This document shows positions 17,964 to 33,628 of a DNA stretch of 64,000 bases, one piece after another. The notes beneath the pieces are model-generated. The model made no database searches. It was not told the DNA's origin and worked only from the letters and a program-made list of their open reading frames with translations. A program made the translations under genes and the position numbers. Each line of letters starts with the position of its first letter. The stretch's first letter is position 1. Source of the stretch: a virus; the IMG/VR virus record IMGVR_UViG_3300036766_000416, positions 96,001 through 160,000 of that record, one strand, 5' to 3'.

Positions 17964-18623
17964 ATGAAAGAGTTTACCTACAATACATCGACACCCCCAA
18001 CCATCGTGCAGAAGAAGTATGACCCGCTACCTCTTTACAATGATAAGAATCCGATGCTCGCACAACGACAGGAGGCCATGGACCTCAATCCACTGCCTGT
18101 GGACCTCATCGAGACCTGTAACCGATTGCTGGCGACCATGAATCAGTATGGTGGCGTAGGTCTCGCTGCTCCTCAATGTGGGATACCCTTGAGGCTCTTT
18201 GTCATGACTGGTGGAATGGTGTGCATCAACCCTCGGATTCTCACAGCTTCTATTGAGACCCTACGCGAGAAAGAGGGGTGCCTCTCGTTTCCTGGACTCT
18301 ACCTACCTATTACACGGTCCAGGACCATTGAGGTCGAATACTTCAACGAGTTTGGTGTGCAGAAGCACGAGACATTTTCTGGTGCCACGGCGAAAGTCTT
18401 TCAACATGAGACCGATCACCTCAATGGCATTGTCTTTACGTCTCTGGTGGGAAACCTGACACTCCAGATGGCCAAGAAGAAAAAACAAAAGCTCTTCAAG
18501 CGCATGGAGCGCATTGTGGAGGTCAAGGAAATGCAGCGCAAGATGGCTGATCTGGTCAGCAAGAGCGCGATGGCCAAGGTGGCACCTCGTGCAGTTCAGG
18601 TTCAGTCAAACAGAGTGACATAG
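17964..18623 (+). CDS. def: Peptide deformylase
   Basis: All three motifs present: GVGLAAPQ, EGCLS, QHETDH. Confidence 0.95.
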   Translation: MKEFTYNTSTPPTIVQKKYDPLPLYNDKNPMLAQRQEAMDLNPLPVDLIETCNRLLATMNQYGGVGLAAPQCGIPLRLFVMTGGMVCINPRILTASIETLREKEGCLSFPGLYLPITRSRTIEVEYFNEFGVQKHETFSGATAKVFQHETDHLNGIVFTSLVGNLTLQMAKKKKQKLFKRMERIVEVKEMQRKMADLVSKSAMAKVAPRAVQVQSNRVT

Positions 18624-18629
18624 GGTGGC

Positions 18630-19787
18630 ATGATGAAAAGTTGGCAATGTGGTTTCGAAATTGATGAACTGAAAACCTTGGAGGCCTTCTACGAGCCATA
18701 CAATCGCTATGCCCTGTCACCGTTCGGAAAATTTAAGAAGAATGACATCGCCACCAAGCTGGACAACAAGGCCTTCAACCAGGTCAACGACCGAGACGGG
18801 CACGTCGAGGCAGCTTGGGTGCGTGAAAGGTCAAAGGTACCCAGCAAGATCACGATGCACGGCAAAACCATCATTGGTGAGAAACTCAAGGGTGACGTGA
18901 CCCTTTCAAGACTCTGTGGTGACCCAGAGACCTTAGAGACCTCACTGATGCATGAGGGGTACACGATGGACAACTGCTGGCTCCTGTCCTACGGTGGGGA
19001 CACCGCGATCTGCCGGCTCGCTGAACGCCTGGGGTTCAAGAAAATTGGCTACAAGGTCACCTCGTTTGCAGAGATCATGGCGGTCTATTTTCGGGACAGT
19101 GACCTCAGTTTGGCACCCAGGAACCACCCAGTGGTGAACAAGGCTGACTTGGTGGGTATGGCAAAGATTGCGAGCATAGGGTCCACGTTGCCCTTGTTGA
19201 TTCTGCAGAAAATCCAACTCAAAGGTCTCCAATACACCAATCACTACAGCAACTACAACACCAAGAATGCCTGGTCTGCATTGGCCCTTCGAGGTTACTC
19301 AGCGGACGCCGCGTTCATCACGAAGCCCGCTGAGATGAATGACAAGTGGCATGAGGCCCACACACACGAACACTTCGAACTTCAAGATACCCCACTCTAC
19401 GCACAGTTCCCCGAAGTCAGAAAACTACTTACGTTTTTAGACGGGGAGTGCCACCGAGTCAGATTTATGCGTCTCGCCCCTGGTGGGGGAGAACTTACTC
19501 GTCATACAGACCAGGTAGACCCCGACGCTGGCAACTCACTAGGCGCGCTGGCTCGCTTGCACTTCCCTCTCAAAACCAACAAGGACGTCCTATTCAGCAC
19601 ATGGAATGGTGACGACCAAGAGGAACGCTATCACTTTGGATTCGGTGAGTGTTGGGTCATTGATACTCGGAAACCTCATATGGCTGTCAATGGGGGCACA
19701 GAGGAACGGATACACCTCGTGGTTGACGTGATTGTGACACCTAAAATCGAACGCATGATCACCGAAGGACTCTCTATTCGAGCCTAA
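18630..19787 (+). CDS. Two-domain protein: possible GNAT-like N-terminus plus Asp/Asn beta-hydroxylase-like 2OG-Fe(II) oxygenase
   Basis: C-terminal RVRFMRLAPGGGEL..HTD...RLHFPL...H.A.N...RIHLVVD (HxD...H jelly roll); N-terminal AICRLAERLGFKKIG loosely resembles GNAT motif B. Confidence 0.65.
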   Translation: MMKSWQCGFEIDELKTLEAFYEPYNRYALSPFGKFKKNDIATKLDNKAFNQVNDRDGHVEAAWVRERSKVPSKITMHGKTIIGEKLKGDVTLSRLCGDPETLETSLMHEGYTMDNCWLLSYGGDTAICRLAERLGFKKIGYKVTSFAEIMAVYFRDSDLSLAPRNHPVVNKADLVGMAKIASIGSTLPLLILQKIQLKGLQYTNHYSNYNTKNAWSALALRGYSADAAFITKPAEMNDKWHEAHTHEHFELQDTPLYAQFPEVRKLLTFLDGECHRVRFMRLAPGGGELTRHTDQVDPDAGNSLGALARLHFPLKTNKDVLFSTWNGDDQEERYHFGFGECWVIDTRKPHMAVNGGTEERIHLVVDVIVTPKIERMITEGLSIRA

Positions 19788-19805
19788 TCAACCACTTAGC
19801 ACCCC

Positions 19806-19834
19806 TTGACACCTGGACCTGGTTGTGATACCCT
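19806..19834 (+). promoter_or_regulatory. Sigma70-like promoter
   Basis: TTGACA-N17-TACCCT with TGA before the -10; near-identical layout to the 27557 promoter. Confidence 0.6.
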
Positions 19835-19873
19835 TAGTATGACAGTTGAAGAAACACCAGGAGCCTTTATATT

Positions 19874-22800
19874 ATGAGTACCCTCAGCAAACTTACAAAG
19901 ATTGTCAGACACAATTACAAAAAGTCTCTGGCCAGGGAACCCAAGGTTCTTCTCTATGTCTATCAGATGATGGACCACAAACCCCTGAATTCTGCCGACG
20001 GGATATACAGTCTCAAGGTGGGGGACCATTGGTGTATCTTCAGGGACATTTATGCGGCCGCCAAAAGGCGAATTCGAGAGGGGTTGGGGTGCCACAAAGC
20101 TGCCCTGGATGACGGTCGAATCAAGATTCTCGCAGTATTCGATGTGACTGTGTATGCCAAGCACCACAAGAAATATAAAAAACATGGCAAGATCGACCTC
20201 AATGTTCACAAAGTTATTCCAGGTCACTATCGAGATGACAATTTCCATGTCAACGATATTGGTGAAGTTCTAGCTCTCATCACCAAAGAAATCAACCGCT
20301 ATTCGACAGCACAACAGAAGGACACCCTCAAACTCAGCCCTCTCCAACACGATCTGCTCAGAGATTCCATTGTGGCCTACAAGGCAGGGAAACTCCGACA
20401 GTTGTTCGCCGCGGCAGCACGAATCGGAAAAACCTGTATGGCTCTGGCTCTCATGCGGGAACTGAACCTTCCGTTTATGGTGTTCGCCAGCTACGTCACG
20501 ACTTCACTCAATTCGATGATTCAGGATGCCGCAAAGTTCGCGCAATTCCACAACATCCTTGTGGTCGATACGCGAAAAAATGACTACCAACAACTCATTA
20601 GTGAAGGTCTTGCGGCGGGTAAGCAAATCGTGGCGCTCCTGAGTATGTGCAATGGTGATGATCGACAGGAACGCATCGACTTTCTCTTCAAGCTGAACCT
20701 TCTTCAAACGTTGGTGGTCGACGAGGCAGACTATGGGTCACATCAACCGACGCAAACCGAACCACTTCAAGCAGCGGTCTCTGTAAACGAATTGGTGATC
20801 CTGATGTCAGGGACCAATCCAGAACGGTCTATGAGTACCTGGAAAATCGACTTCCAGCGACACATCAGTAATCAAGACATGCAAGTGGCCAGAGGGCTGT
20901 ACCTCAGAGGTGAGTACAAACAGTCACCGAGCAAGATGCTCTTCTTCAAGAAGGACTACAGCATTCTCGGCGCGGTTGTTCCGGCTCGCTACTACCAAAT
21001 GACCCTCAAGAAACTTCAGGACCTCGCCAAACTCCAGCACCCAGAGGCCTTCACGGATGATGAACTGTGGGGTTCGTGGATCAAGTGGATGAAGAACCCA
21101 GCGAAGGCCAGTGGCCCACTGTCCATGTTCTTTGAGTCAGTCTTTGAGGGCAAGTGGAACCTCGAAGAAGTCAACACCAGGTATCAGTTTAGTATCACCC
21201 CAGGTGGACAACAAGTGGTGATGGTCTGGCTGCCTTCCTGCACCGAGACCGAGAAGATGAACTTGTTCGCTGAGATTGCTCAAAAAAGTCTCAAAAACTG
21301 GGACGTGATTCCGCTCTCTGGTGGAGTGACGACCCCCGATGGCACCAGGATGACAGGCGCGAAGGCTGAACGCCATGTGAATGAACGTATTGCCTCAGCC
21401 AAATTCAATGGCAACCGCAACGTCATGATCATCTCAGCGATCATGGGTGCCCGCTCATTCGGGATCAAGGAAATCACTGAGGTCTATCTGTGCTACGATG
21501 AGGGAGCGGTGGGTTCGACGATTCAGAAAATGTCACGAGCCCTCACACCGTTCTTCGACGGGACTGAGAAACTTGCTCGCATTGTCTCGTGCAGCTTCGA
21601 CCCTAACCGTGACGAGAAATTCGACCCACTGGTCCTTGAGTGTGCCAAGCACACCAAGGCTCTGTATGGGATACCCCTGGTCAAGGCCATCAAACTCGTG
21701 CTACGCACGTCAGACTTCTTTGTGATGACCCAGGATGGACCGAAACCCTATGAAATCTCCGCGTACCTTGAGGGTGTGTTGGCCCGCAAGAGTACCGCGC
21801 GGGTGTTCGGGAAAATTTTCAAGCTGGAAAACATTCCCACTGACCTGTTGGAGTCTATCGCCAGGGTCTCTGGAAAAATCGGCAAGACCACGAAACAAGA
21901 AGTTGCTCAACGAGGCAAGACGCTCGCTGAGGTCCTCAAGAAATCACCAGGAACCAAGAATACTCCGGCTCAAGACAAAATCTGGAAAGACATCCACAAC
22001 GGCCTGGTCTACATCGCGTCCAACATCGATTGGATCATGTGCTTCGGTCGCCGTGGGGCCTCATTGGTGGAGTGCCTGGACATTCTCGATAAGGAAACTC
22101 AGAGGACCCGGGATGGCCTCGCTGAGGATTATGGTATCCCCTATGCGGACCTCGCACGATTGCTTCGGTGCGACGTGAGTAGCCATGACCTCCTGGAGTT
22201 GGAGTCCTACGCGGGCACTGGGACCGCTAGCAACCGCACAAAATTTTCTATCGACCCAGTGGTGATGGAGATGTTGGCGATCATTCCTGAGAAGGATTGG
22301 CAGTCGTCTACCAAGACCTTTGCGGACCTGGCGATGGCAGGAGGTCAGTTTATTGTTGGGCTGGTGCGAATGCTGAGAACCTACGGACACTCAGACGAGA
22401 ACATCAGGAGTCGTGTGTTCGGATTCGACACCTGCAAGCACAGAATTCTCGCTGCTAAATACCACTGTCCAGACCTCATCGGAACCTTTGAGGTCAAAAC
22501 AATCGAGGAGTTGATGAAGATGACCCAGAAATTTGACGTGATCGTTGGGAACCCACCGTTTCAACAAAATAGCAAAATCGCAAAAGACAGCGGCACCAAT
22601 AAACTCTGGAATAAATTTACAAAACTCGCTATCGATCTTTCACCGGGGGGATATGTGACATACATCACCCCCCAATCATGGTTGGTGGGAAACAGGACAT
22701 TCGACCTGCTCACCAGTAAGAAATCAATAAGTGTTAATACCGAAATCTCTCATTATTTTCAGGGTGTTAATAGTTCTTTCTGCTCGTGGGTTCTGTCAAA

Positions 22801-23404
22801 CAAAGACAAGGACGACGCAGAAACTGGGAAGATATTTGTGAACGGCAAACCACTTGACAGTTCCCTAGGTTTGATACCCAAAGACAGATCACACAACGGT
22901 CTTTCTTTAGTTGCTAAGTTTTTTTCAAAGAAAGATAAATTTTCATTCGACCGACTTTATAATCATGGATCAACAGCCATTAAAAACGACCCAACACTAC
23001 TAGGCAAAAAAAGTCAACGATACCAACACCCAATTACATTCACCGCCTCAAAACAAGGCATTGCGTGGAGTCGCATACCAAGCCCAGTGCAGGGGAAAAA
23101 GAAAGTGATTATATTTCGTAGCGCCCCTATAAAACCCACGTATTCAACTAATGGTGTTGGTGCTGACGCCTTCTTTAAGTTAGTGACCTCGAAAGAGGAA
23201 GGAAAGAATATGGTTGAAATTTTCAACTCAAAACTCTACTCATACATTTTCAAAACCACACTCTATAGTGGATTTTTCTCTATGTCAGTGTTTAACCACA
23301 TTCCCTATCTCGATTACACCAGGTCCTGGAGTGACGCTGAAATCTATGAGCACTTCAACATCACCAAGAAAGAGCAAGCACACATTGAAGCCTACCTTGC
23401 GTGA
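19874..23404 (+). CDS. Restriction-modification-like fusion: possible GIY-YIG/T5orf172-like N-terminus, SF2 helicase, amino-MTase and specificity domain
   Basis: AARIGKT (Walker A-like), VVDEADYG, MSGT, QKMSR.LTP; FADLAMAGGQF (motif I-like), FDVIVGNPPF, YITPQSW; AT-rich C-terminal region. Confidence 0.75.
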   Translation: MSTLSKLTKIVRHNYKKSLAREPKVLLYVYQMMDHKPLNSADGIYSLKVGDHWCIFRDIYAAAKRRIREGLGCHKAALDDGRIKILAVFDVTVYAKHHKKYKKHGKIDLNVHKVIPGHYRDDNFHVNDIGEVLALITKEINRYSTAQQKDTLKLSPLQHDLLRDSIVAYKAGKLRQLFAAAARIGKTCMALALMRELNLPFMVFASYVTTSLNSMIQDAAKFAQFHNILVVDTRKNDYQQLISEGLAAGKQIVALLSMCNGDDRQERIDFLFKLNLLQTLVVDEADYGSHQPTQTEPLQAAVSVNELVILMSGTNPERSMSTWKIDFQRHISNQDMQVARGLYLRGEYKQSPSKMLFFKKDYSILGAVVPARYYQMTLKKLQDLAKLQHPEAFTDDELWGSWIKWMKNPAKASGPLSMFFESVFEGKWNLEEVNTRYQFSITPGGQQVVMVWLPSCTETEKMNLFAEIAQKSLKNWDVIPLSGGVTTPDGTRMTGAKAERHVNERIASAKFNGNRNVMIISAIMGARSFGIKEITEVYLCYDEGAVGSTIQKMSRALTPFFDGTEKLARIVSCSFDPNRDEKFDPLVLECAKHTKALYGIPLVKAIKLVLRTSDFFVMTQDGPKPYEISAYLEGVLARKSTARVFGKIFKLENIPTDLLESIARVSGKIGKTTKQEVAQRGKTLAEVLKKSPGTKNTPAQDKIWKDIHNGLVYIASNIDWIMCFGRRGASLVECLDILDKETQRTRDGLAEDYGIPYADLARLLRCDVSSHDLLELESYAGTGTASNRTKFSIDPVVMEMLAIIPEKDWQSSTKTFADLAMAGGQFIVGLVRMLRTYGHSDENIRSRVFGFDTCKHRILAAKYHCPDLIGTFEVKTIEELMKMTQKFDVIVGNPPFQQNSKIAKDSGTNKLWNKFTKLAIDLSPGGYVTYITPQSWLVGNRTFDLLTSKKSISVNTEISHYFQGVNSSFCSWVLSNKDKDDAETGKIFVNGKPLDSSLGLIPKDRSHNGLSLVAKFFSKKDKFSFDRLYNHGSTAIKNDPTLLGKKSQRYQHPITFTASKQGIAWSRIPSPVQGKKKVIIFRSAPIKPTYSTNGVGADAFFKLVTSKEEGKNMVEIFNSKLYSYIFKTTLYSGFFSMSVFNHIPYLDYTRSWSDAEIYEHFNITKKEQAHIEAYLA

Positions 23405-23825
23405 AGTGATTGAACACGTTCGCAACAGGTCCTACATGTCAGGGGTCCAACGGGATGCCCTGCGCGTCAAGGCCACTGGTGAAATCTTCACACCGACACC
23501 ACTGGTCCAGGAACTTCTGGACCAACTCCCCACTGAGGTGTTCAGTGAGCCCTCCGAGACCTTCCTAGACCCTTCCTGTGGTGACGGACAGTTTCTCGGC
23601 GAGGTCCTGATCCGCAAAATGGAGCATGGTAGCACGTTCGCTGAGGCCCTCAACACGATCTATGGTGTCGAACTGATGCCCGACAACAGGGCCCTCTGTG
23701 TTGAACGGCTCCTGTGTGGTCACGAAGAATACCGGGACCTCGTGGAGTCGCACATCGTCTGCGCTGATGCCTTGAGCTATGATTACTCGTTCGGTAAACC
23801 TGTGGGTCTGGAGAACCTGTGCTGA
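23385..23825 (+). CDS. DNA amino-methyltransferase, SAM-binding half only
   Basis: RVKATGEIFTP (motif X), FLDPSCGDGQFL (motif I), IYGVEL, IVCADAL; no NPPY/F. Start uncertain (TTG 23385, GTG 23406 or ATG 23436). Confidence 0.75.
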   Translation: MKPTLREVIEHVRNRSYMSGVQRDALRVKATGEIFTPTPLVQELLDQLPTEVFSEPSETFLDPSCGDGQFLGEVLIRKMEHGSTFAEALNTIYGVELMPDNRALCVERLLCGHEEYRDLVESHIVCADALSYDYSFGKPVGLENLC

Positions 23826-24394
23826 TCATTGGGAACCCTCCATTCGGCAAGAGGGCCTCTCTGGCGATAGAGTTTTTCAATCGAGCCACCCGGCTCTCCG
23901 ATGTGATTGCGTTCGTGGTGCCAGTACAGTTCAGGAAGTGGTCGGTTCAGTCCAAACTCAACCCGGAAATGCGACTGGTCCTAGACAAGGATGTTCCTGA
24001 ACACACCTTCGACGGGATACGCTGCTGTTTGCAAATCTGGAAACGGGGAGGGTCGGGTCCCGATCTACGACTGAAAGCGGCACCCACGATCACCCACAAA
24101 GACTTTTTCATGTGGCAGTATAATAATACAGAAAAGGCCAAGCGAGTGTTCGGCATCACGTTCGATTTCGCGGTACCCCGTCAAGGGTACGCAGATTACA
24201 CCAGGCGTGAGACAGACTACAGGGCCTGTGAACTGACAACCCAATGGATACTCTTTCGAGCACCCAATCCAGTGGTCTTGTCGAGACTCAAGCAATTAGA
24301 TTTTGAGGCACTTGCAAAGAAGAATACGACGATCCCTGGGTTCGGCAAAGCAGACGTGGTGAGATTGTATCATGAGGTGTATGGTGACAACTGA
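23819..24394 (+). CDS. DNA amino-methyltransferase, catalytic/target half
   Basis: Begins LIIGNPPFG, then IAFVVP..F; GGAG SD 5 nt before the GTG; lacks motif I. Confidence 0.75.
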   Translation: MLIIGNPPFGKRASLAIEFFNRATRLSDVIAFVVPVQFRKWSVQSKLNPEMRLVLDKDVPEHTFDGIRCCLQIWKRGGSGPDLRLKAAPTITHKDFFMWQYNNTEKAKRVFGITFDFAVPRQGYADYTRRETDYRACELTTQWILFRAPNPVVLSRLKQLDFEALAKKNTTIPGFGKADVVRLYHEVYGDN

Positions 24395-25301
24395 ACGAGA
24401 CATCGATCACGCGCTAGACCTGATTACCCCGGTCCAGTTCGACCAGGGTCTCTATTGGAAACGCGACGACCACTTCCAACCTTTCGGGCCCCTACATGTC
24501 AATGGCGGAAAAGTCCGACAGGCGATCATGGTCTTTCGGTCCAAGCTGGAAGAGCTTCGTGACCCTGAGTGCTACGACAATGGCGTGGTCACCGCCGCCT
24601 CAGTGTACTCCCCACAATCCGCCAACATCGCCAAGGTCGCGCAGCACTATGGGGTGAAGTGTATCTCGACAGTAGGGGGAACCACTGAAGCAGGACTCCG
24701 TAAGCACCATATGATGCGGCTCACGCGGCACTACGGGTCCGAGATTCGTATTGTCGCAGGGCACGGCATGACCGCGGTGATCCACAGCCGGATGCACGAC
24801 ATTGCGAAGCAGCTTCGGTACCTCCCAATCGAAATGGGTGAACTGATGGAGGAGAACCCCACTGCAATCTTTGAGTCAACCGCTCGCCAAGTCCAGAACC
24901 TACCCGATGACCTGGACAACCTCATCGTGCCCACTGGTGTTGCCATCCAGTTGACGGGTATCCTGCGGGGCCTCAGGGAGTTTGACAAAAAAGTTGGACG
25001 GGTCGTGTGTGTCTGTGTGGGACCGACCAGAGAGAAGCAACTGAGCCACTACCTCCGTGACATTTACAAGGAAGAGGTCTCGCGGTACCACAGTGTCGAG
25101 ATGGTTGCCCACAAGGCTCCGTATTCGAAACCCTACGAGGTCAAGGTCAACGGTGAGCATATCGATGACCTCTATGAGGGCAAGGCCTTTGACTGGATGA
25201 CCAAGAACGTGGATTACCGTAACCAGAAAACCTGCTTCTGGGTCGTCGGCAAGAGGCCTAGAGTGACCGATGTTGATACCATCATCCAGGACATGCTATG
25301 A
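24384..25301 (+). CDS. PLP-dependent fold-type II enzyme (ACC deaminase / D-cysteine desulfhydrase-like)
   Basis: WKRDD.F...GGKVRQ (PLP lysine), VTAAS..SPQ, IVPTGVA, LDDLYEGKA-like C-terminal motif (IDDLYEGKAF). Confidence 0.75.
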   Translation: MTTERDIDHALDLITPVQFDQGLYWKRDDHFQPFGPLHVNGGKVRQAIMVFRSKLEELRDPECYDNGVVTAASVYSPQSANIAKVAQHYGVKCISTVGGTTEAGLRKHHMMRLTRHYGSEIRIVAGHGMTAVIHSRMHDIAKQLRYLPIEMGELMEENPTAIFESTARQVQNLPDDLDNLIVPTGVAIQLTGILRGLREFDKKVGRVVCVCVGPTREKQLSHYLRDIYKEEVSRYHSVEMVAHKAPYSKPYEVKVNGEHIDDLYEGKAFDWMTKNVDYRNQKTCFWVVGKRPRVTDVDTIIQDML

Positions 25302-26878
25302 ACTACTTCTATGAACGGGGCACCGAACTACTCGAATCACCCGTCAACAAAACGTTCGACGAACTGTTGGTCATGAGCACCGAGGAATTTCGACAATGGG
25401 TCATCGACCTTCGCAAGACCGTCGTGTACCTCTGGGATACCAAGGGACAGCCGCCACGGGTGGGCTACGACGAAGCAGGGATCATCAAACAGTTTCGGGA
25501 ACTAGAGCCCTTCATCACCGAGACCTTCGAGCAGCTTGACGAGTGCACCGGTGAACGGAACGTGATCCGCAACACCTCGAACCTTGGGAACGCGGTGAAC
25601 CAGTGGTTTCCCACGATGATGAAGGTGCGTATCAACTACACGAAGGACGTCGACGCAGGGAAATCTATCTACGATTTTTTCGCTAAGGACTCTTTGCTCG
25701 ATACGTTCGTGACCTATGCGTCAAGACATTTTCACAGAGACTCGTTCTACAACTTCTCGCTGACCTTGCAGGCCTCTGACACCACACGGTACGGTCAGGT
25801 CCCTGTGGCGACAACGGGTCTGGAGTGGGTCCGACAATTCGAGACTGATGGGTACCGCAACCGTGGACAGTGGGATTACTGGCTCGAAACGATAGCTGCC
25901 ACGAAAACTTATACGGGCTACAACGAAGTTCTCAAAGACCGTCAGTACCTCCAGGTGTCTCAGCAAGAATTGGAGACCCTAGGTGACCTGGTACCCGCCC
26001 GATGCACAACCAACATCAACAGGTCCAAAGGTGACCTCTGTGCCATCAGGGTCTATGAGACCGGGCAGAAGGTGTTTCCAGTAGGCCTCAAGGCATTCCG
26101 TATGAGCTTCTGCCAGTACGCGGTCCAATGGCCTCCATTGACAGCCAAGCATATCATTGAACGGTTTACAAACGAGTGGAAATCTGAACCCACAATATAT
26201 TGTTGGGACCCTAGTGCTGGGTGGGGCGGGCGATTGCTCGGTGCTTTGGCAGTCGAGGATAAGCGTCACATCACCTATCTGGCCAATGACCCCAACAGCG
26301 ATCATACAACAACTCTAGGGCGGACTAAGTATCACGAGGTATACGACTTCTATTGCCAGCACGTTCCTAAAGGTGGAATTTTTGGTGCGGAGCACACTGA
26401 ATTCAAATTTTGGCAACTGGGGTCGGAGCTGATGCACCGTGACCCCGGCTTTTGTGAATATAAAGGAAAAATATCTCTGGTGTTTACCAGCCCACCATAT
26501 TTTTGCAAAGAAGCCTACTCGGAGGACCCCTCACAGTCCTACAAGAAATTCTCGCAGTACGATCAGTGGCGCGATGGGTTTCTCAAGAGGACCTTGGAGA
26601 CTGCTGTTGAGTGGTTGCGACCCGGTGGGTATCTGGCTTGGAATATAGCGAACGCCACATTTAGCGGAGATAGATTGCCCTTAGAAAATGATTCCAATGT
26701 TATCCTAAAATCGCTTGGTATGGAGTACGTGCAGGTGCTGAAAATGTCCCTTGCTCAAACCCCGGGCGGCAATAGACTAGACAAAGTTACAGGACTTCCA
26801 AAAACAGAGCATTCCTGCAAAGTGGGAGGGTTGTGGTTGAAATGGGAACCTATTCTAATATGGCGCAAACCGAAATAA
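25298..26878 (+). CDS. DNA methyltransferase-like protein (N4-C/N6-A, SPPY type)
   Basis: WDPSAGWGGRLLG (motif I), LVFTSPPYF..EAY (motif IV), LRPGGYLAWNIA; ATGA-coupled to the PLP gene. Confidence 0.8.
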   Translation: MNYFYERGTELLESPVNKTFDELLVMSTEEFRQWVIDLRKTVVYLWDTKGQPPRVGYDEAGIIKQFRELEPFITETFEQLDECTGERNVIRNTSNLGNAVNQWFPTMMKVRINYTKDVDAGKSIYDFFAKDSLLDTFVTYASRHFHRDSFYNFSLTLQASDTTRYGQVPVATTGLEWVRQFETDGYRNRGQWDYWLETIAATKTYTGYNEVLKDRQYLQVSQQELETLGDLVPARCTTNINRSKGDLCAIRVYETGQKVFPVGLKAFRMSFCQYAVQWPPLTAKHIIERFTNEWKSEPTIYCWDPSAGWGGRLLGALAVEDKRHITYLANDPNSDHTTTLGRTKYHEVYDFYCQHVPKGGIFGAEHTEFKFWQLGSELMHRDPGFCEYKGKISLVFTSPPYFCKEAYSEDPSQSYKKFSQYDQWRDGFLKRTLETAVEWLRPGGYLAWNIANATFSGDRLPLENDSNVILKSLGMEYVQVLKMSLAQTPGGNRLDKVTGLPKTEHSCKVGGLWLKWEPILIWRKPK

Positions 26879-27464
26879 CTTCAGTACATTTCCATCCTTT
26901 ATGATGCCTCCTTTCCCCGCGAGATGTTGACCACATGTGGCTAACATTCAGCTTATTGGTTCTACAGAACCCCTTCAGGTTTGTTATTTGAAAAGTACTC
27001 CCGGCAGGTGATGTCACCTCCCAGTGTTTATCTCTCTTTCCGCGTATAACTTCAGCAACTTTCCTAACATGTTCTGGGGATTGTGGACCCGTTTTTATTC
27101 CTCTATTCCAGGGAATTCTTCTCTTGAACCTCGCAATAGTCTCTGGCGAGTGTCTGAAACCAAGTTGTCCCTCTCCGCCGTAGGGCATATTATAGCCCTT
27201 GCCAGTAGAGTAGTGTGAATCATAAAGACGAATAAAATAACCCTCCATAATGTTCAACACAAAATCTTTATCAGGTGACTCATACTCAATAGTCCAATCG
27301 AATCCAGACGCACCATATTTCTTGATGGCTTGATGAAACACAACCCCCTGAGCTTTTGACTTTGCTTCCCATAGATGGATATACTTTCGTTTAGGCCAAG
27401 CAGAGTCGTACCCGATATAGACTTTTCCGTTGGTCTTGTTTGTCGCTTTATAAATGACAGGCAT
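26850..27464 (-). CDS. GIY-YIG homing endonuclease (minus strand)
   Basis: VIYKATNKTNGKVYIGYD...RKYIH, AIKKYG, GYNMPYGGEG; NUMOD3-like middle; HHKGWKC end. Confidence 0.85.
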   Translation of the reverse strand: MPVIYKATNKTNGKVYIGYDSAWPKRKYIHLWEAKSKAQGVVFHQAIKKYGASGFDWTIEYESPDKDFVLNIMEGYFIRLYDSHYSTGKGYNMPYGGEGQLGFRHSPETIARFKRRIPWNRGIKTGPQSPEHVRKVAEVIRGKRDKHWEVTSPAGSTFQITNLKGFCRTNKLNVSHMWSTSRGERRHHKGWKCTEVISVCAILE

Positions 27465-27469
27465 AACGT

Positions 27470-27477
27470 TACTTATA
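27470..27477 (-). promoter_or_regulatory. Late-promoter-like TATAAGTA for the minus-strand endonuclease
   Basis: Reverse complement reads TATAAGTA, ending 6 nt before the ATG at 27464. Confidence 0.45.
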
Positions 27478-27556
27478 CGCGATCCACTGTGACAAAAATC
27501 CCACAGTTTTATAATGCTGGTCTAATCTAATTCTAATCTTCCCGCCCGTTTCCTGC

Positions 27557-27885: not shown

Positions 27886-30348
27886 GTGGATAAGAGAGAA
27901 AACCTAGAGACCAAAAAAAGCATGTTTACCGTTGAAACCAAGAGTATGCTCGCCAAGCTGATGGCCGCTGAGAATATCAAAGTTGAGCACCGAGTCTGCA
28001 AGACCGCTAGCTTCAACCTCAAGACCCGCACGTTGACCTGCCCGATCTGGAACAATATGTCAGGCGACCTCTATGACCTACTGATGGGGCATGAGGTTTC
28101 TCACGCCAAGAACACTCCGATGAACGGATGGCACGATTCTGTAGTCTATGCCGGGGGTGACAAAAAAGCCTCTGCGATGGCACAGAAAGCCTTCAAGAAC
28201 TTCCTCAATGTCGTTGAGGATGCCCGTATCGAAAAGCTGATCAAGCGAACCTACCCCGGGCTCCGACAACCAATGATCCGGGCCTACAAGGAATTGGTCG
28301 CCAAAGACTTTTTTGGACTGTCTGCAATCTCGGACTTCAATGAACTGTATCTGATCGACCGCTTGAACCTCGCTGCGAAGTGCGGGTCATCGCTCAATAT
28401 TCGATTCTCGAAAAAAGAACAACCCCTCTATGATGAAATGATGACCCTGGAGACCTGGGATCAAGTTGTGGCCCTTGCGAAAAAACTCTACAAGCATAGT
28501 GTCGATGAGCAAAAAGATGGCGAGCAAAAAAAGAAAGAGTTAGCCGATCACCTCAAGGATTCTTTACAGGATCAAGATGAGGGCGAGGATGGAGAAGAGG
28601 GAGAAGAATCTGATTGGGATGAGGATTATGATTCTGAGGAAACTGAGGATGGGGACCGCAATGAAACGGGTTCCGATGACCTCGATTCTGATGAAGAAGA
28701 TCCTGATTCTGAGAAAGCTGATGGTCAGGATAGTGACGCCGAGGGCGAAGATGCCGATGGCGACAAAGAAGAAAAGGCCGACGATAAGACCACCAAGAAG
28801 TCGAAGGACGAGGGTGAGGGAAACCGAACCAAGGATTCTGACAAGAAACCTGCCGGAAACAAGAGCGACGGGGAGGGTGCTGGGCAGCAAGAAACGACTC
28901 AGGACCAGGAATTTATTCCCAAAGCGAAAACCGACGAGTCATTCCGTAACATGGAGCAAAATCTTGTCGCGGATAGCAATGTGGTCCCAATGGACGTCAT
29001 TATCCCGACCCCGAACCTCAAGGACCTTGTGGCCCCCGCTGCTGTAGTCAATAAGGGTCTCACGTCGTTCTATGCTGGATACCGAGCCAAGGGTATTCAA
29101 CTGCTGAACGAATTCAAGAAAAAGAACGAGGATTATATCTCATTGCTCGCCAAAGAGTTCGAGATGAAGAAAGCTGCGCGGTCCTACGCGAAAGCAAAAA
29201 TTTCCGACACTGGGGATATCAATGTCAACAAGCTTGCGAACTATAAGTTGGAAGACAATATGTTCAAAAAACTCATGGTGGTCCACAAAGGAAAGTCACA
29301 TGGGCTTGTATTGATCCTGGACAAGTCTGGGTCGATGTCCGAGCATATCAAAGGGGCCATGGAGCAGATTCTTGTGATGGCACTCTTCTGCAGAAAAGTC
29401 AATATCCCGTTCGTGGCGTATAGCTTCAGTGACAATGTAGGATCTGCTCGCAGCCACGATTTTCCTGGGCGAGAGGTATATTCACCGAACCCCCTGAAGC
29501 CGTTCAGCACCAAAGAGGGTGAGATGTTCATGGGAAACCTCGACCTTCGGGAGATGTTCAATTCGAAGATGCCCGCGCACGAATTTACGCAAGCGATTGC
29601 CAATCACCTGTTATTGTTGAATGGATTCAAGGGACGAGACGGCATGGGTATCCCTGAGCACGAACGAATGGGTTCGACGCCGCTCAATGAGGCGTTGGTC
29701 GCCTTGAGAGACATGATCCGAAACTTCAAGAAAGCTCATCGCCTGGACATTGTGAATGCCATCGTGGTACATGACGGAGATTCTGACGGGAACAGGGAAG
29801 TGCATGGACCTACTCAGAATTCTAGCTGGCAGAGAAAACGGTTTGACCCTCAGCATATGCGAGTAACCCTGATCGACCACAAAGAACACCTGCGCGTGGA
29901 CGTGCCCAAGGATTATCGGGGCGTGACCATTGCCCTGATGAAGTGGGTTCAAATGACCGCCGATTGCGGGGTCTTTGGATTCTTCATCACCGGGAACACC
30001 GCCAAGAGTGCCAAGCGTGGAATCATGGGTCTCTATCAGAACAAACAAGGGATCAGAATGAAGTTCGGCGGTCGCCTGGATCAACCTGTGGCCGACCAAA
30101 TGATCTTGCTGGACAAGCTCGCCAAGGAAGTGATCGAGCATAAATTTCTCGAATCCTACTCTGACGGCTATACGCGATTCTATTTCATCCCAGGCTCAAC
30201 GGAATTGCAGACCAGCAATGACACCATGGTGATTCATGGGGGCAAGTGGACCCCTTTCCGCCTCCTGGCCGCCTTCAAAAAGGTACACCAGAAGCGCCGA
30301 GTGAGTAGGGTTTTAGTCAATCGCTTCATTGAACTGATGAGCGTCTAG
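27886..30348 (+). CDS. cobT: CobT-like protein: HExxH N-terminal domain, acidic linker, VWA domain
   Basis: GHEVSHA, NVVEDARIEK, long D/E-rich linker, LILDKSGSM MIDAS, GSTPLNEAL, HDGDS; precedes a CobS-like ATPase. Confidence 0.75.
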   Translation: MDKRENLETKKSMFTVETKSMLAKLMAAENIKVEHRVCKTASFNLKTRTLTCPIWNNMSGDLYDLLMGHEVSHAKNTPMNGWHDSVVYAGGDKKASAMAQKAFKNFLNVVEDARIEKLIKRTYPGLRQPMIRAYKELVAKDFFGLSAISDFNELYLIDRLNLAAKCGSSLNIRFSKKEQPLYDEMMTLETWDQVVALAKKLYKHSVDEQKDGEQKKKELADHLKDSLQDQDEGEDGEEGEESDWDEDYDSEETEDGDRNETGSDDLDSDEEDPDSEKADGQDSDAEGEDADGDKEEKADDKTTKKSKDEGEGNRTKDSDKKPAGNKSDGEGAGQQETTQDQEFIPKAKTDESFRNMEQNLVADSNVVPMDVIIPTPNLKDLVAPAAVVNKGLTSFYAGYRAKGIQLLNEFKKKNEDYISLLAKEFEMKKAARSYAKAKISDTGDINVNKLANYKLEDNMFKKLMVVHKGKSHGLVLILDKSGSMSEHIKGAMEQILVMALFCRKVNIPFVAYSFSDNVGSARSHDFPGREVYSPNPLKPFSTKEGEMFMGNLDLREMFNSKMPAHEFTQAIANHLLLLNGFKGRDGMGIPEHERMGSTPLNEALVALRDMIRNFKKAHRLDIVNAIVVHDGDSDGNREVHGPTQNSSWQRKRFDPQHMRVTLIDHKEHLRVDVPKDYRGVTIALMKWVQMTADCGVFGFFITGNTAKSAKRGIMGLYQNKQGIRMKFGGRLDQPVADQMILLDKLAKEVIEHKFLESYSDGYTRFYFIPGSTELQTSNDTMVIHGGKWTPFRLLAAFKKVHQKRRVSRVLVNRFIELMSV

Positions 30349-30487
30349 AATGCCCTCCAAGGGGTCCAAAAAGAGTGGGTATGCTAGGACATTGGTGCCC
30401 ACTCAATCGACCCTCCTGGACCCTTTGCGGGGGTCGTTTGAGTGTTCAAAAGTGGACATTATAAACCTCTAATGTGGCTCATAGAAC

Positions 30488-30516
30488 TTGACAGGGACCT
30501 CGGTGTTTGATAGAAT
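30488..30516 (+). promoter_or_regulatory. Sigma70-like promoter, extended -10
   Basis: TTGACA-N17-TAGAAT with TGn. Confidence 0.75.
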
Positions 30517-30563
30517 TAGATCATGGATAGCAGAGAAAACCAACTAATTGGGAGTGACAGATA

Positions 30564-31787
30564 ATGAGCGCCAGAAGTGAAAGCCGTGAAAAGTTCCTAG
30601 CCCTGTTGATTGCGACCGGAAAAGCGACCGTGACCACCAAGGAATTACTGGACCTGTGCGAAGCGAACGACCTCAAGGAACCTCAGTGGTTTACCAAGGA
30701 CACCGCGAACCGAGCGGGGCGTGGTCAGTTTCTCGTGCCGAATGGGGCTGTGCCAGTCTCATCGAAATTCAGTGCCCCTGCCCTCGAACCGAAAATTGTG
30801 GAAGAAGAAGTGGTGGCCTTTCAACCCCTCACGGGCAAACCGAAACCCCGGGTTATCTCCGTCGTGACCGACCTTGAGGACCAGGGTATTGTTCCCATCA
30901 AGTATAAAAATTATGTACCCTTTGGCAACTTTGAGGACCTCAAGTCTATCATCGTTTCTCGCCAATTCTACCCTGTGTTCATCACGGGCCCTTCTGGTAA
31001 TGGGAAGTCTATGTCCGTGGAGCAAGTTTGCGCCCTACTGGGGCGCGAGTATGTTTGCGTTTCCATGACCCCTGAGACCGATGAGGGTGACCTTCTCGGA
31101 AACTACATTCTTCTCGATAATCAGATGGTCTGGCGTGACGGTGCCGTGACAACGGCCGCTCGCCGTGGGGCTGTCTTGTGCATCGACGAGATTGACTACG
31201 GAGCCCAGAACCTTTCGTGCCTCCAGAGAGTCTTGGAAGGGAAGCCATTCTTACTGAAAAAGAAGGGTGAGATTGTCACTCCGGCGCCTGGATTCCAGAT
31301 TATTGCGACCGCTAACACCAAAGGAAAAGGTTCTGAGGATGGTCGCTACATGTTCACCAACGTGCTCAACGAGGCCTTCCTTGAGCGATTTCCCATCACC
31401 TTCGAGCAAGAGTGGGCACCTCAGGTGGTTGAGCGGAAAATTATCAAGAAAGAACTGGAAGCCGCGGGTCGGGGCGATGATGAGTTTGCCAATCACCTCG
31501 TGATCTGGGCTTCTACAATTCGCAAAGCCTACGATGAGGAGGGTGCGTCAAGTGAAGTGATTTCCACTAGACGACTCGTTCACATTGCCAGAGCGTATCC
31601 GATCTTCGGTGGTGACAGACTCAAGGCAATTCGGTATTGTCTAAACCGCTTTGACGAAGAAACAAAAAAAAGTTTCATAGATTTATATTCAAAGGTCGAT
31701 TCGAGCATAGTTATACAAAATACTATGGCAGGTGAAGGCACTCAAGACGGATCGGAGAATACAACACAAGAGCCTGTCACTGTCTAA
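30564..31787 (+). CDS. cobS: CobS/MoxR-like AAA+ ATPase
   Basis: ITGPSGNGKS, ETDEGDLLG, LCIDEID, ATANTKGKGS.DGRY, LNEAFLERF, ISTRRLVHI. Confidence 0.9.
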   Translation: MSARSESREKFLALLIATGKATVTTKELLDLCEANDLKEPQWFTKDTANRAGRGQFLVPNGAVPVSSKFSAPALEPKIVEEEVVAFQPLTGKPKPRVISVVTDLEDQGIVPIKYKNYVPFGNFEDLKSIIVSRQFYPVFITGPSGNGKSMSVEQVCALLGREYVCVSMTPETDEGDLLGNYILLDNQMVWRDGAVTTAARRGAVLCIDEIDYGAQNLSCLQRVLEGKPFLLKKKGEIVTPAPGFQIIATANTKGKGSEDGRYMFTNVLNEAFLERFPITFEQEWAPQVVERKIIKKELEAAGRGDDEFANHLVIWASTIRKAYDEEGASSEVISTRRLVHIARAYPIFGGDRLKAIRYCLNRFDEETKKSFIDLYSKVDSSIVIQNTMAGEGTQDGSENTTQEPVTV

Positions 31788-32833: not shown

Positions 32834-33628
32834 GTGGAAATAAAAATTGACATCGAAGTTCTACACAAGAACAAAATCTTCATCGCAACACCGATGTATG
32901 GTGGACAATGCTGCGGTATGTATATGAAAAGTTGTCTGGACCTCCAGACCATTTTTCAGCAATACGGAATCCCCTCCAGGTTCTCCTTCATTTTCAACGA
33001 ATCACTCATCACCAGGGCCCGCAATTACCTCGTCGACGAATTTCTCAGAACCGACTTCACCCACCTCTTGTTTCTCGATGCTGACATTCACTTCAACCCT
33101 CAAGATATTATTGCCATGCTCGCGCTGGACAAGGACGTGATCGGTGCCCCATACCCCAAAAAAGCCTTGAACTGGCACAACATCGCTAAGGCTGCTCGCA
33201 ATCACCCAGAGCTTGACCCCAAGGAACTTGAGAACGTCGTGGGTGACTATGTGTTCAATGTGGTCAAGGGTACTGAAAAATTTCAGGTCTCGGAGCCTCT
33301 GGAGGTCATGGAAATCGGTACAGGCTACATGCTCGTCAAGCGCGAGGTATTTGCGAAGTTTGCTGAGGCCTATCCGCAACTCAAATACCGGCCAGACCAT
33401 GTTGGACAAAAAAACTTTGACGGCACTCGATACATACACGCATATTTTGATACAGTGATCGACCCACAGAGCGAACGGTACCTCTCAGAGGACTACATGT
33501 TCTGTCAGTGGTACCGCGCGATTGGTGGACACATCTGGTTGTGCCCATGGGTCCAGACGCAGCATGTAGGGACATACGCCTTCACCGGTAACATGGCGAA
33601 GATCGCCGATCTCACAGGGAGTCTGTAA
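32834..33628 (+). CDS. GT-A fold glycosyltransferase-like protein
   Basis: IATPMYGG, NESLITRARN, LLFLDADI (DxD), GTGYML, YLSEDYMFC. Confidence 0.7.
   Translation: MEIKIDIEVLHKNKIFIATPMYGGQCCGMYMKSCLDLQTIFQQYGIPSRFSFIFNESLITRARNYLVDEFLRTDFTHLLFLDADIHFNPQDIIAMLALDKDVIGAPYPKKALNWHNIAKAARNHPELDPKELENVVGDYVFNVVKGTEKFQVSEPLEVMEIGTGYMLVKREVFAKFAEAYPQLKYRPDHVGQKNFDGTRYIHAYFDTVIDPQSERYLSEDYMFCQWYRAIGGHIWLCPWVQTQHVGTYAFTGNMAKIADLTGSL

Follow-up and report, generated by a model that had tools for sequence, protein, structure and literature searches.

A conserved phage module that links a methyltransferase-fold protein to hydroxylase, PLP and GNAT enzymes, with a possible role in DNA hypermodification

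To our knowledge, every described phage DNA hypermodification that carries an added amino acid or amine begins with a 5-hydroxymethyl-pyrimidine or with 7-deazaguanine. Here we analyse six contiguous open reading frames (ORFs), g1 to g6, at positions 18630-26878 of a 64,000-nucleotide stretch of viral DNA (hereafter the window), which makes up bases 96001-160000 of IMG/VR record IMGVR_UViG_3300036766_000416, a complete virus genome of 178,609 bp with terminal repeats. An earlier note, made from the sequence alone, had read all six as one DNA-modification and restriction island. Three of them, listed here, concern us first; g6 encodes a protein of S-adenosylmethionine (SAM)-dependent methyltransferase (MTase) fold, g5 a pyridoxal phosphate (PLP) enzyme, and g1 a protein with an Fe(II)/2-oxoglutarate (2OG) cupin.

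g1, 18630..19787, + strand, 385 amino acids (aa): GNAT-like N-terminal domain followed by an AspH/proline-hydroxylase-like Fe(II)/2OG cupin; candidate tailoring hydroxylase
g5, 24372..25301, + strand: fold-type-II PLP enzyme (kind PLP-A), relative of ViI gp226, with a predicted Schiff-base lysine, Lys47
g6, 25298..26878, + strand, 526 aa: 285-aa N-terminal domain followed by a class I SAM-dependent amino-transferase fold; core enzyme

The closest described systems each share some of these enzyme types. The thymidine pathways of phages ViI, M6 and PaMx11 run from 5-hydroxymethyl-deoxyuridine (5-hmdU) through the kinase 5-HMUDK and the amino-acid:DNA transferase aGPT-Pplase to a PLP decarboxylase, an acetyltransferase or other tailoring enzymes, with the amino-acid adducts on DNA being decarboxylated and acetylated (PMC8989533). 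The locus studied here resembles them in its gp226-homologous PLP enzyme, in the combinatorial set of acetyltransferase and tailoring genes placed around one core transferase, and in the metagenomic fusions of its pathway enzymes, but it has no hydroxymethylase, 5-HMUDK or aGPT-Pplase and adds an AspH-like hydroxylase. Its core is instead a SAM-dependent MTase fold, which points to an exocyclic amine of A, C or G as the probable substrate in place of 5-hmdU. In microcin C synthesis, MccD, an MTase-fold 3-amino-3-carboxypropyl (acp) transferase, is followed by the PLP decarboxylase MccE to give an aminopropyl group (PMC10491745). Likened by enzyme types, both systems genetically link an MTase fold, a PLP enzyme and a GNAT (MccE combines PLP decarboxylase and GNAT domains), while the microcin C substrate is a peptidyl-nucleotide phosphate and not a base in a polymer. 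Wybutosine synthesis pairs TYW2, a Rossmann-fold acp transferase, with TYW5, an Fe/2OG hydroxylase of the acp beta carbon (PMC3045595). The pairing of a SAM-fold transferase with a 2OG hydroxylase, from the family whose members act on beta carbons of amino acids, is common to both cases, but TYW5 is of JmjC type where g1 is AspH/proline-hydroxylase-like, TYW2 is Trm5-like whereas g6 resembles Trm11/N6_N4-type amino-MTases, and the wybutosine pathway is eukaryotic and archaeal and acts on tRNA.

Among MTases, g6 shares with Trm11, Trm14 and TrmN the order of motif I before motif IV and a (D/S)PPY motif, and differs from them in its low identity (11-15%), in having no recognised THUMP domain, in its unrelated 285-aa N-terminal domain, and in extra invariant residues after motif IV (E405, Y407, Q413, W424). 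The phage orphan N6A/N4C MTases (Pfam N6_N4_Mtase, Eco57I, N6_Mtase) provide a final comparison. The intervening genes g2 to g4 belong to these families as ordinary members or as fragments, whereas g6 falls below the Pfam cut-off, is not circularly permuted like the beta class, and is uniquely tied to hydroxylase, PLP and GNAT genes.

Gene neighbourhoods and fusions around g6

The linkage of g6 to these partners is seen first in gene neighbourhoods. Eighty loci were fetched around g6 relatives, and the PLP gene and the protein collection led to closer relatives; the counts below refer to 87 or 88 related loci. Gene order in the module was classified in the 69 loci from related T4-like phages that show both peptide deformylase (PDF) and g6. 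These 69 keep the order gp46, PDF, variable tailoring genes, g6, CobT, CobS, and PDF lies upstream of g6 in 70 of the 88 related loci. The 80 fetched loci read gp46, PDF, (g1), g6, CobT, CobS, with g2, g3, g4 and g5 found in none of them. The tailoring repertoire includes GNAT-like/AspH-like hydroxylases, stand-alone GNATs, two kinds of fold-type-II PLP enzyme (PLP-A and PLP-B), SLOG and vWA proteins, and at least one tailoring gene stands between PDF and g6 in 63 of the 69 loci, in these combinations:

GNAT-like-hydroxylase: 20 of 69 loci
GNAT: 13 of 69 loci
Cupin-only hydroxylase and GNAT: 12 of 69 loci
GNAT-like-hydroxylase and PLP-B: 7 of 69 loci
PLP-B: 3 of 69 loci
Richer sets (vWA, PLP-A, SLOG (YAcAr), unknowns): 8 of 69 loci
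No gene between PDF and g6: 6 of 69 loci

Counted by gene, the GNAT-like-hydroxylase occurs in 35 of the 69 loci, the cupin-only hydroxylase with GNAT in 12, GNAT alone in 13, and a PLP gene of kind A or B in 17. Orthologues of g5 itself sit between g1 and g6 in L085, L086, L090 and L091, and L084, the closest relative, has one after g1 on a contig that ends before g6. The fuller layouts are as follows:

L084: g1, a 209-aa ORF, an intact 276-aa MTase, PLP gene
L085 and L086: g1, vWA, PLP, GNAT, SLOG, g6
L090: g1, a 342-aa ORF, PLP, SLOG, g6
L092 to L094: g1, (other genes), the second PLP type, SLOG, g6

The small SLOG protein (Pfam YAcAr) overlaps g6 from directly upstream in the closest relatives (L085 6387-6767; L090 8612-9004; L092 8640-9020; L094 8615-9004) and is missing from the window; its role is perhaps nucleotide binding or by-product handling.

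Protein fusions offer a second view of the same association. The following were identified among the 150 best of 2934 representative clusters of g6 relatives:

P0046, 829 aa: g6 and PLP-A, the PLP domain 44% identical to g5
P0084, 796 aa: PLP and g6
P0110, 443 aa: g6 C-terminus and PLP-A
P0148, 1081 aa: g6 MTase domain, a g1-like GNAT-like/cupin part (35%) and PLP-B
P0149, 537 aa: g6 MTase domain and PLP-B
P0060 and P0081, 490 and 387 aa: g6 and GNAT

The fusions of g6 with PLP enzymes occur in both domain orders. Members of the fusion clusters (26, 10, 9 and 18 members at 90%) come from several sources and each lie on a contig of their own, which rules out assembly chimeras. The setting of the fusions is bacterial islands that carry integrases or serine recombinases; one such island lies after glmS, and the P0084 fusion is flanked by two ParB_N genes. 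The gene for P0148 (L088 6520-9765) lies in a bacterial island just downstream of glmS and is followed by a gene for a WG-repeat protein and then by serine recombinase genes and a PemK toxin gene; the island has the look of a mobile element at a glmS-linked site. The PLP-B enzymes, about 250 aa long with the motif VVRDDLLxYGSKxRF and a weak PALP match, share 46-51% identity with the PLP domain in one of the fusions.

A third instance comes from cultured phages. The MTase domain of Mycobacterium phage Vincenzo gp1 is homologous to g6 (hhalign 96%, E 3.5e-9; motif CPPY), and gp1 overlaps gp2, a PLP enzyme homologous to g5 (L003 1-2275). By sequence, gp1 matches aTrm11 at E 1.4e-5 and CcrM at 0.13. 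In Vincenzo and AlanGrant the pair sits at the left genome end and is annotated as 'ParB-like partition protein' and 'carboxylate deaminase'; Pfam did not bear out a ParB domain within residues 1-210 of gp1. Taken together, the neighbourhoods, the fusions and the Vincenzo pair indicate that g6 is functionally linked to hydroxylase, PLP and GNAT enzymes. The grouping of hydroxylase, PLP enzyme and SPPY MTase made in the earlier note is thereby upheld, as the three recur between PDF and CobT in relatives and are fused in recurrent protein clusters, and the PLP and SPPY genes co-occur in other genomes.

Homology of the individual enzymes adds to this picture. In g1, a degenerate GNAT-like domain (about aa 10-151) precedes the cupin (about aa 200-370), and the C-terminal part is Asp_Arg_Hydrox (PF05118; E 1.4e-12, 48.1 bits against a Pfam cut-off of 22.6), with the HxD...H triad H292, D294 and H362 invariant across 18 g1 homologues. 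Searched against the Protein Data Bank (PDB), the cupin profile finds L-proline cis-4-hydroxylase 4p7w (E 7e-10), beta-hydroxylase 7v4f and proline 3-hydroxylase 1e5r, so that its closest solved relatives are hydroxylases of free amino acids. The N-terminal domain has no Pfam match, and hhalign (95%, E 2.4e-8) shows it to be homologous to a family of stand-alone GNAT-like proteins, whose members are 142-150 aa long, carry the motifs Q-G-x-G-N-A and N-x-R-A-x-x-F-Y, and as a profile match exclusively GNATs in the PDB (E 0.001-0.1).

The PLP enzyme g5 matches PALP (E 1.4e-12, 48 bits against a cut-off of 35), phrog_3650 (E 2e-38) and ViI gp226 (YP_004327553; 28% identity, E 7e-24), with K47 of g5, within NGGKVRQ, aligned to K92 of gp226. 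The latter residue is the proposed Schiff-base lysine of an enzyme that decarboxylates O-serinyl-thymidine in DNA (PMC8989533), and a decarboxylase role is predicted for g5 from this kinship. Since no PDB sequence matches g5 at E <= 0.1, its kinship with gp226 is closer than with any PLP enzyme of solved structure, and this grouping with a DNA decarboxylase agrees with the tie between the PLP enzyme and base hypermodification suggested in the earlier note. Membership of g5 in a ViI-type thymidine pathway was considered and rejected. A PF00303 search of the complete 178.6-kb genome for a ThyA-family dUMP hydroxymethylase was negative while its controls matched, and ViI gp243/gp247 queries for 5-HMUDK and aGPT-Pplase gave, against the genome, nothing or one match at E 0.008 with an internal stop; lacking all three enzymes, the genome does not encode a thymidine-hypermodification pathway.

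The core protein g6 belongs to a large family: 2934 representative clusters reach E <= 1e-3, IMG/VR has 218 relatives that are 56-61% identical along the full length, and 1215 proteins reach E <= 1e-10, of which all source names among the 120 listed are 'hypothetical protein'. DPSAGWGG of motif I (DPSAGWGGR) and TSPPYF of motif IV are invariant or nearly so in 49 sequences, and the invariant residues are D304, G308, R312, D331, N333, S398, Y401, E405, Y407, Q413 and W424. The catalytic half matches the first half of the N6_N4_Mtase profile, g6 scoring 25.3 bits, just below the cut-off of 26.7, and its homologues P0003, P0008, P0014 and P0077 29.7-31.9 bits; the MTase_II profile also matches. 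An AlphaFold2 model (pLDDT 92) and its PDB matches confirm the MTase fold, the catalytic domain lying closest to the tRNA guanine-N2 MTases TrmN, Trm11 and Trm14 (Z 15.5-15.8 over about 180 residues, root-mean-square deviation 2.6-3.1; next row 14.3). Foldseek with the full model returned generic class I MTases only, and the family profile found nothing significant among PDB sequences. The N-terminal domain, also confidently modelled (pLDDT 91), reached a best Z of 4.1, with no PDB representative at Z >= 5, which is not proof of a new fold; its look-up in the ESM Atlas gave unnamed viral clusters only, all below 0.9. Several fusions lack this domain, as do the homologues of 329 aa in Twort-like phages. 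Distant relatives of g6 are fused to a ROS/MucR zinc finger, and a search limited to homologues of at least 922 aa gave four distant matches. At their C-termini the homologues P0002, P0003, P0007, P0008 and P0014 (725-771 aa) are extended by a conserved stretch of about 230 aa that has no Pfam match and shares the motifs INPN..RAIY and SLVGK.

Predicted chemistry, target and competing explanations

We give about even chances to the proposal that the real unit is g6 with g1 and g5, and that g6 transfers acp to a base amine of the phage DNA, where the group is then tailored. Most likely g6 would act after replication, on bases in the DNA of the phage itself, moving the acp group of SAM, and not its methyl, to an exocyclic amine. 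The hydroxylase g1 would then hydroxylate the acp side chain, and g5 would decarboxylate it to leave a (hydroxy)aminopropyl group. The predicted product in this phage is a hydroxylated aminopropyl (or acp) base, with N-acetyl forms expected in GNAT-bearing relatives; such a base, bulky and charged, would block host nucleases.

PLP enzymes and GNATs require a primary amine, and the (S/D/N)PPY motif is typical of enzymes that alkylate exocyclic amines. Because the partners need an amine or amino-acid carbons, and because g6 is the sole conserved transferase and SAM the sole evident co-substrate, acp transfer is the simplest way to supply them; beyond g6, the cluster has no conserved enzyme that transfers a group. 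DNA is a more likely target than RNA given the kinship of g5 with gp226, the ParB and MucR associations, the matches to DNA-MTase profiles, and the placement of the genes within replication modules and mobile elements. The likeness of the catalytic domain to Trm11 hints at guanine N2 as a possible target atom.

Several observations weigh against this proposal. Whole-library Pfam and NCBIfam scans of g6 returned N6_N4_Mtase alone and no known acp-transferase family, and the families considered (TYW2/Met_10, Tsr3, DTW/TapT, nicotianamine synthase/CntL, MccD) are not among its top structural matches, a point that decides nothing by itself. In both structure and sequence, the solved proteins nearest to g6 are tRNA N2-methylguanine (m2G) MTases and not DNA enzymes, which makes RNA a live alternative target, and the g6 N-terminal domain gave no substrate clue. 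The GNAT-like domain of g1 has the region of the acetyl-CoA loop (Q/R-x-x-G-x-G/A in GNATs) deleted. No tailoring gene accompanies g6 in six related loci, and two near-complete relatives with g1 and g6 have no PLP gene anywhere, from which it follows that the tailoring steps are optional. Finally, g6 may simply be a methyltransferase, acp transfer being something that we infer.

This last possibility, in which g6 is an ordinary DNA amino-MTase that makes N6-methyladenine, N4-methylcytosine or m2G and the partners elaborate the N-methyl group or act elsewhere in the same complex, is in our judgment unlikely, and it is the best of the alternatives. It would account directly for the class I fold, the SPPY motif and the N6_N4_Mtase and MTase_II matches, and for the presence of g6 alone in the six loci and in Twort-like staphylococcal phages. 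It fits poorly with the partners, however, since hydroxylation of an N-methyl yields an unstable hemiaminal, that is, demethylation, since a methyl group offers PLP and GNAT enzymes no primary amine, and since the cluster has no other conserved transferase able to add an amino acid.

Next in probability, and likewise improbable, comes the possibility that the module modifies tRNA or rRNA, for example by an acp- or m2G-type change that tunes translation during infection. The tRNA enzymes that head the structural matches (TrmN, Trm11 and Trm14, at Z 15.5-15.8 against 14.3) and the preference of Vincenzo gp1 for aTrm11 over CcrM speak for it, as do the adjacent PDF gene and the fact that acp transfers to nucleic acids known so far are all on RNA. 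Yet the one relative of the PLP partner that has been characterised acts on DNA, profiles of DNA MTases match the catalytic half of g6, ParB_N neighbours and MucR zinc-finger fusions recur around the family, no THUMP or other RNA-binding domain is recognised in g6, and the window contains no tRNA genes.

Auxiliary metabolism, with the enzymes making or altering a small molecule or a protein rather than a nucleic acid, seems to us decidedly improbable. Free amino acids are the substrates of the hydroxylase's nearest solved relatives, the PLP enzyme is ACC-deaminase/D-cysteine-desulfhydrase-like, PDF and CobS/CobT are neighbours, and PrmC, a protein glutamine MTase with an NPPY motif, appears among the structural matches of g6 at Z 13.7; the gp226 relationship, the ParB/MucR associations, the DNA-MTase profile matches and the recurrence of the module in mobile elements and phage replication modules all point the other way.

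The g2-g4 insertion and the genomic setting

All six ORFs of the earlier note are confirmed on the + strand at 18630-26878, and most of its domain calls hold (hydroxylase, PLP enzyme, SPPY MTase fold, and the MTase of g2); a nuclease in g2 was not detected. Its count of five overlapping genes was too high: overlaps exist between g3 and g4 (7 nt), g4 and g5 (23 nt) and g5 and g6 (4 nt, ATGA), while g1 and g2 are separated by 86 nt and g2 would overlap g3 only if g3 used an upstream TTG start. For g3, ATG at 23436 is more likely as the start than TTG at 23214. The single six-gene unit is likewise reduced to g1, g5 and g6, which are linked, with g2, g3 and g4 outside the conserved module:

g2, 19874..23404, + strand, 1176 aa: helicase-like ATPase fused to a gamma-class N6-adenine MTase (NPPF); accessory
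g3, 23436..23825, + strand, 129 aa: stand-alone SAM-binding half with MTase motifs I-III, member of phrog_4376
g4, 23819..24394, + strand, 191 aa: starts at motif IV, IIGNPPF; motifs IV-VIII and target recognition domain of the resident type II N6A MTase
19746..23820, no strand: segment of 4.07 kb without DNA counterpart in the closest relative, L084; holds g2 and g3 and replaces L084 5171-6165 (about 1 kb)

The mosaic origin of this part is plain from L084. In blastn the window aligns with that locus over 18003-19745 and 23821-25285 only, so the g2-g3 segment stands in place of about 1 kb of L084, with its right junction inside the resident MTase gene, at about codon 86. The g2 MTase domain matches Eco57I (E 2.4e-13) and the DNA MTase phrog_3689 (E 8e-26), its helicase-like part is weak (Walker A GKT, DEAD; ResIII E 0.034), residues 1-160 gave no nuclease domain or Pfam match, and the protein has no PDB sequence match and, in a pattern search of IMG/VR, no relatives. 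Neither g2 nor g3 is present in any of the 87 related g6 or PLP loci. Synechococcus phage S-CAM7 (L087 2593-6418) carries the helicase part of g2 as two genes, then a separate MTase, then a 133-aa protein to which g3 is 39% identical over its full length; judged by this homology, these genes are the g2-g3 cassette in unfused form, and g2 and g3 are a cassette of separate origin. The match of g3 to phrog_4376 (E 4e-25) spans profile positions 7-131 of 134.

The sole carrier of g4 among the 87 loci is L084, in an intact version: g4 is 71% identical to residues 86-276 of its 276-aa MTase and matches PADLOC MTase_II PDLC03274 over positions 96-291 of 298 (E 1.9e-28). It starts at a GTG with GGAG 5 nt upstream, and stop codons lie upstream in its frame. 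By these alignments, g4 is the resident MTase stripped of its N-terminal 85 codons, the SAM-binding half, and g3 is not its missing half. Reading g3 and g4 as one frameshifted gene was rejected, as g3 is a full-length orthologue that ends at the natural end of the S-CAM7 protein, DNA homology to the L084 MTase starts only at 23821, and stops lie upstream of g4. The right junction lies exactly at MTase motif IV, and g3 abuts g4 with the 7-nt overlap and GGAG (window 23819-23825). The two could be a naturally reconstituted split MTase from two unrelated halves, or a dead remnant. In our account, g2 to g4 are adenine-MTase genes of an ordinary kind that entered the variable slot of the module, and the 'island' of the earlier note is the conserved module together with an MTase cassette inserted recently. 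That the whole stretch is a restriction-modification-like island in which g2 cuts unmodified DNA is very improbable: g2 does join a helicase-like ATPase to an MTase as type ISP/IIG enzymes do, but its MTase is accompanied by only that weak helicase part and the unmatched residues 1-160, its PADLOC matches (MTase_II/IIG) are confined to the MTase region, and g2 and g3 are of separate origin, so that neither the helicase-nuclease attack nor the place of the helicase-MTase and half-MTases in a modification module is sustained.

The + strand carries almost every gene in the window. To the left of the six ORFs lie T4-type genes (UvsW, the late sigma factor gp55, gp47/gp46 and PDF), and to the right a CobT-like gene, CobS and a glycosyltransferase-like gene, the immediate neighbours being:

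17964..18623, + strand: peptide deformylase (Pfam Pep_deformylase, E 6.6e-36), conserved left neighbour of the module
26850..27464, - strand: GIY-YIG homing endonuclease (phrog_314 and phrog_5123), whose 3' end overlaps the end of g6
27886..31787, + strand: CobT-like (phrog_459) and CobS (AAA_5), conserved right neighbours of the module

A tblastn search of the genome found about 15 paralogues of the GIY-YIG homing endonuclease, which is consistent with frequent cassette exchange; this load is unusually high and may drive the mosaicism of the module slot. The Anp1-like glycosyltransferase-type gene (phrog_1574; window 32834-33628) is conserved a few kb downstream of CobS, where in relatives a dCMP deaminase and a dNMP kinase accompany it. 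Window positions 18000-27500 had no megablast match among cultured phages, and a promoter and terminator scan did no better than on shuffled sequence.

Implications for phage DNA modification

The g6 family has no functional name in its sources, and the fusions carry only automatic JGI labels ('TrmN6', 'ACC deaminase-like'). A non-exhaustive search of the literature on aminocarboxypropyl/DNA/phage and PLP/MTase/ParB found no description of the module. A broader and more tentative proposition, one that we regard as possible but rather doubtful, is that g6 founds a large family of DNA-acting SAM-dependent acp transferases directed at a purine or cytosine exocyclic amine, possibly guanine N2, with partners that diversify the side chain.

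An MTase-fold pathway of this kind would be new chemistry on DNA, probably at a different base position. It would matter for resistance against restriction enzymes and CRISPR nucleases, for artefacts of base calling in long-read metagenomes, and for tools that label DNA enzymatically. The cultured carriers Vincenzo and AlanGrant offer a ready experimental system. If the proposal is correct, phages would possess a second route to amino-acid-decorated DNA, independent of 5-hmdU and spread across freshwater T4-like phages, mycobacteriophages and bacterial mobile islands.

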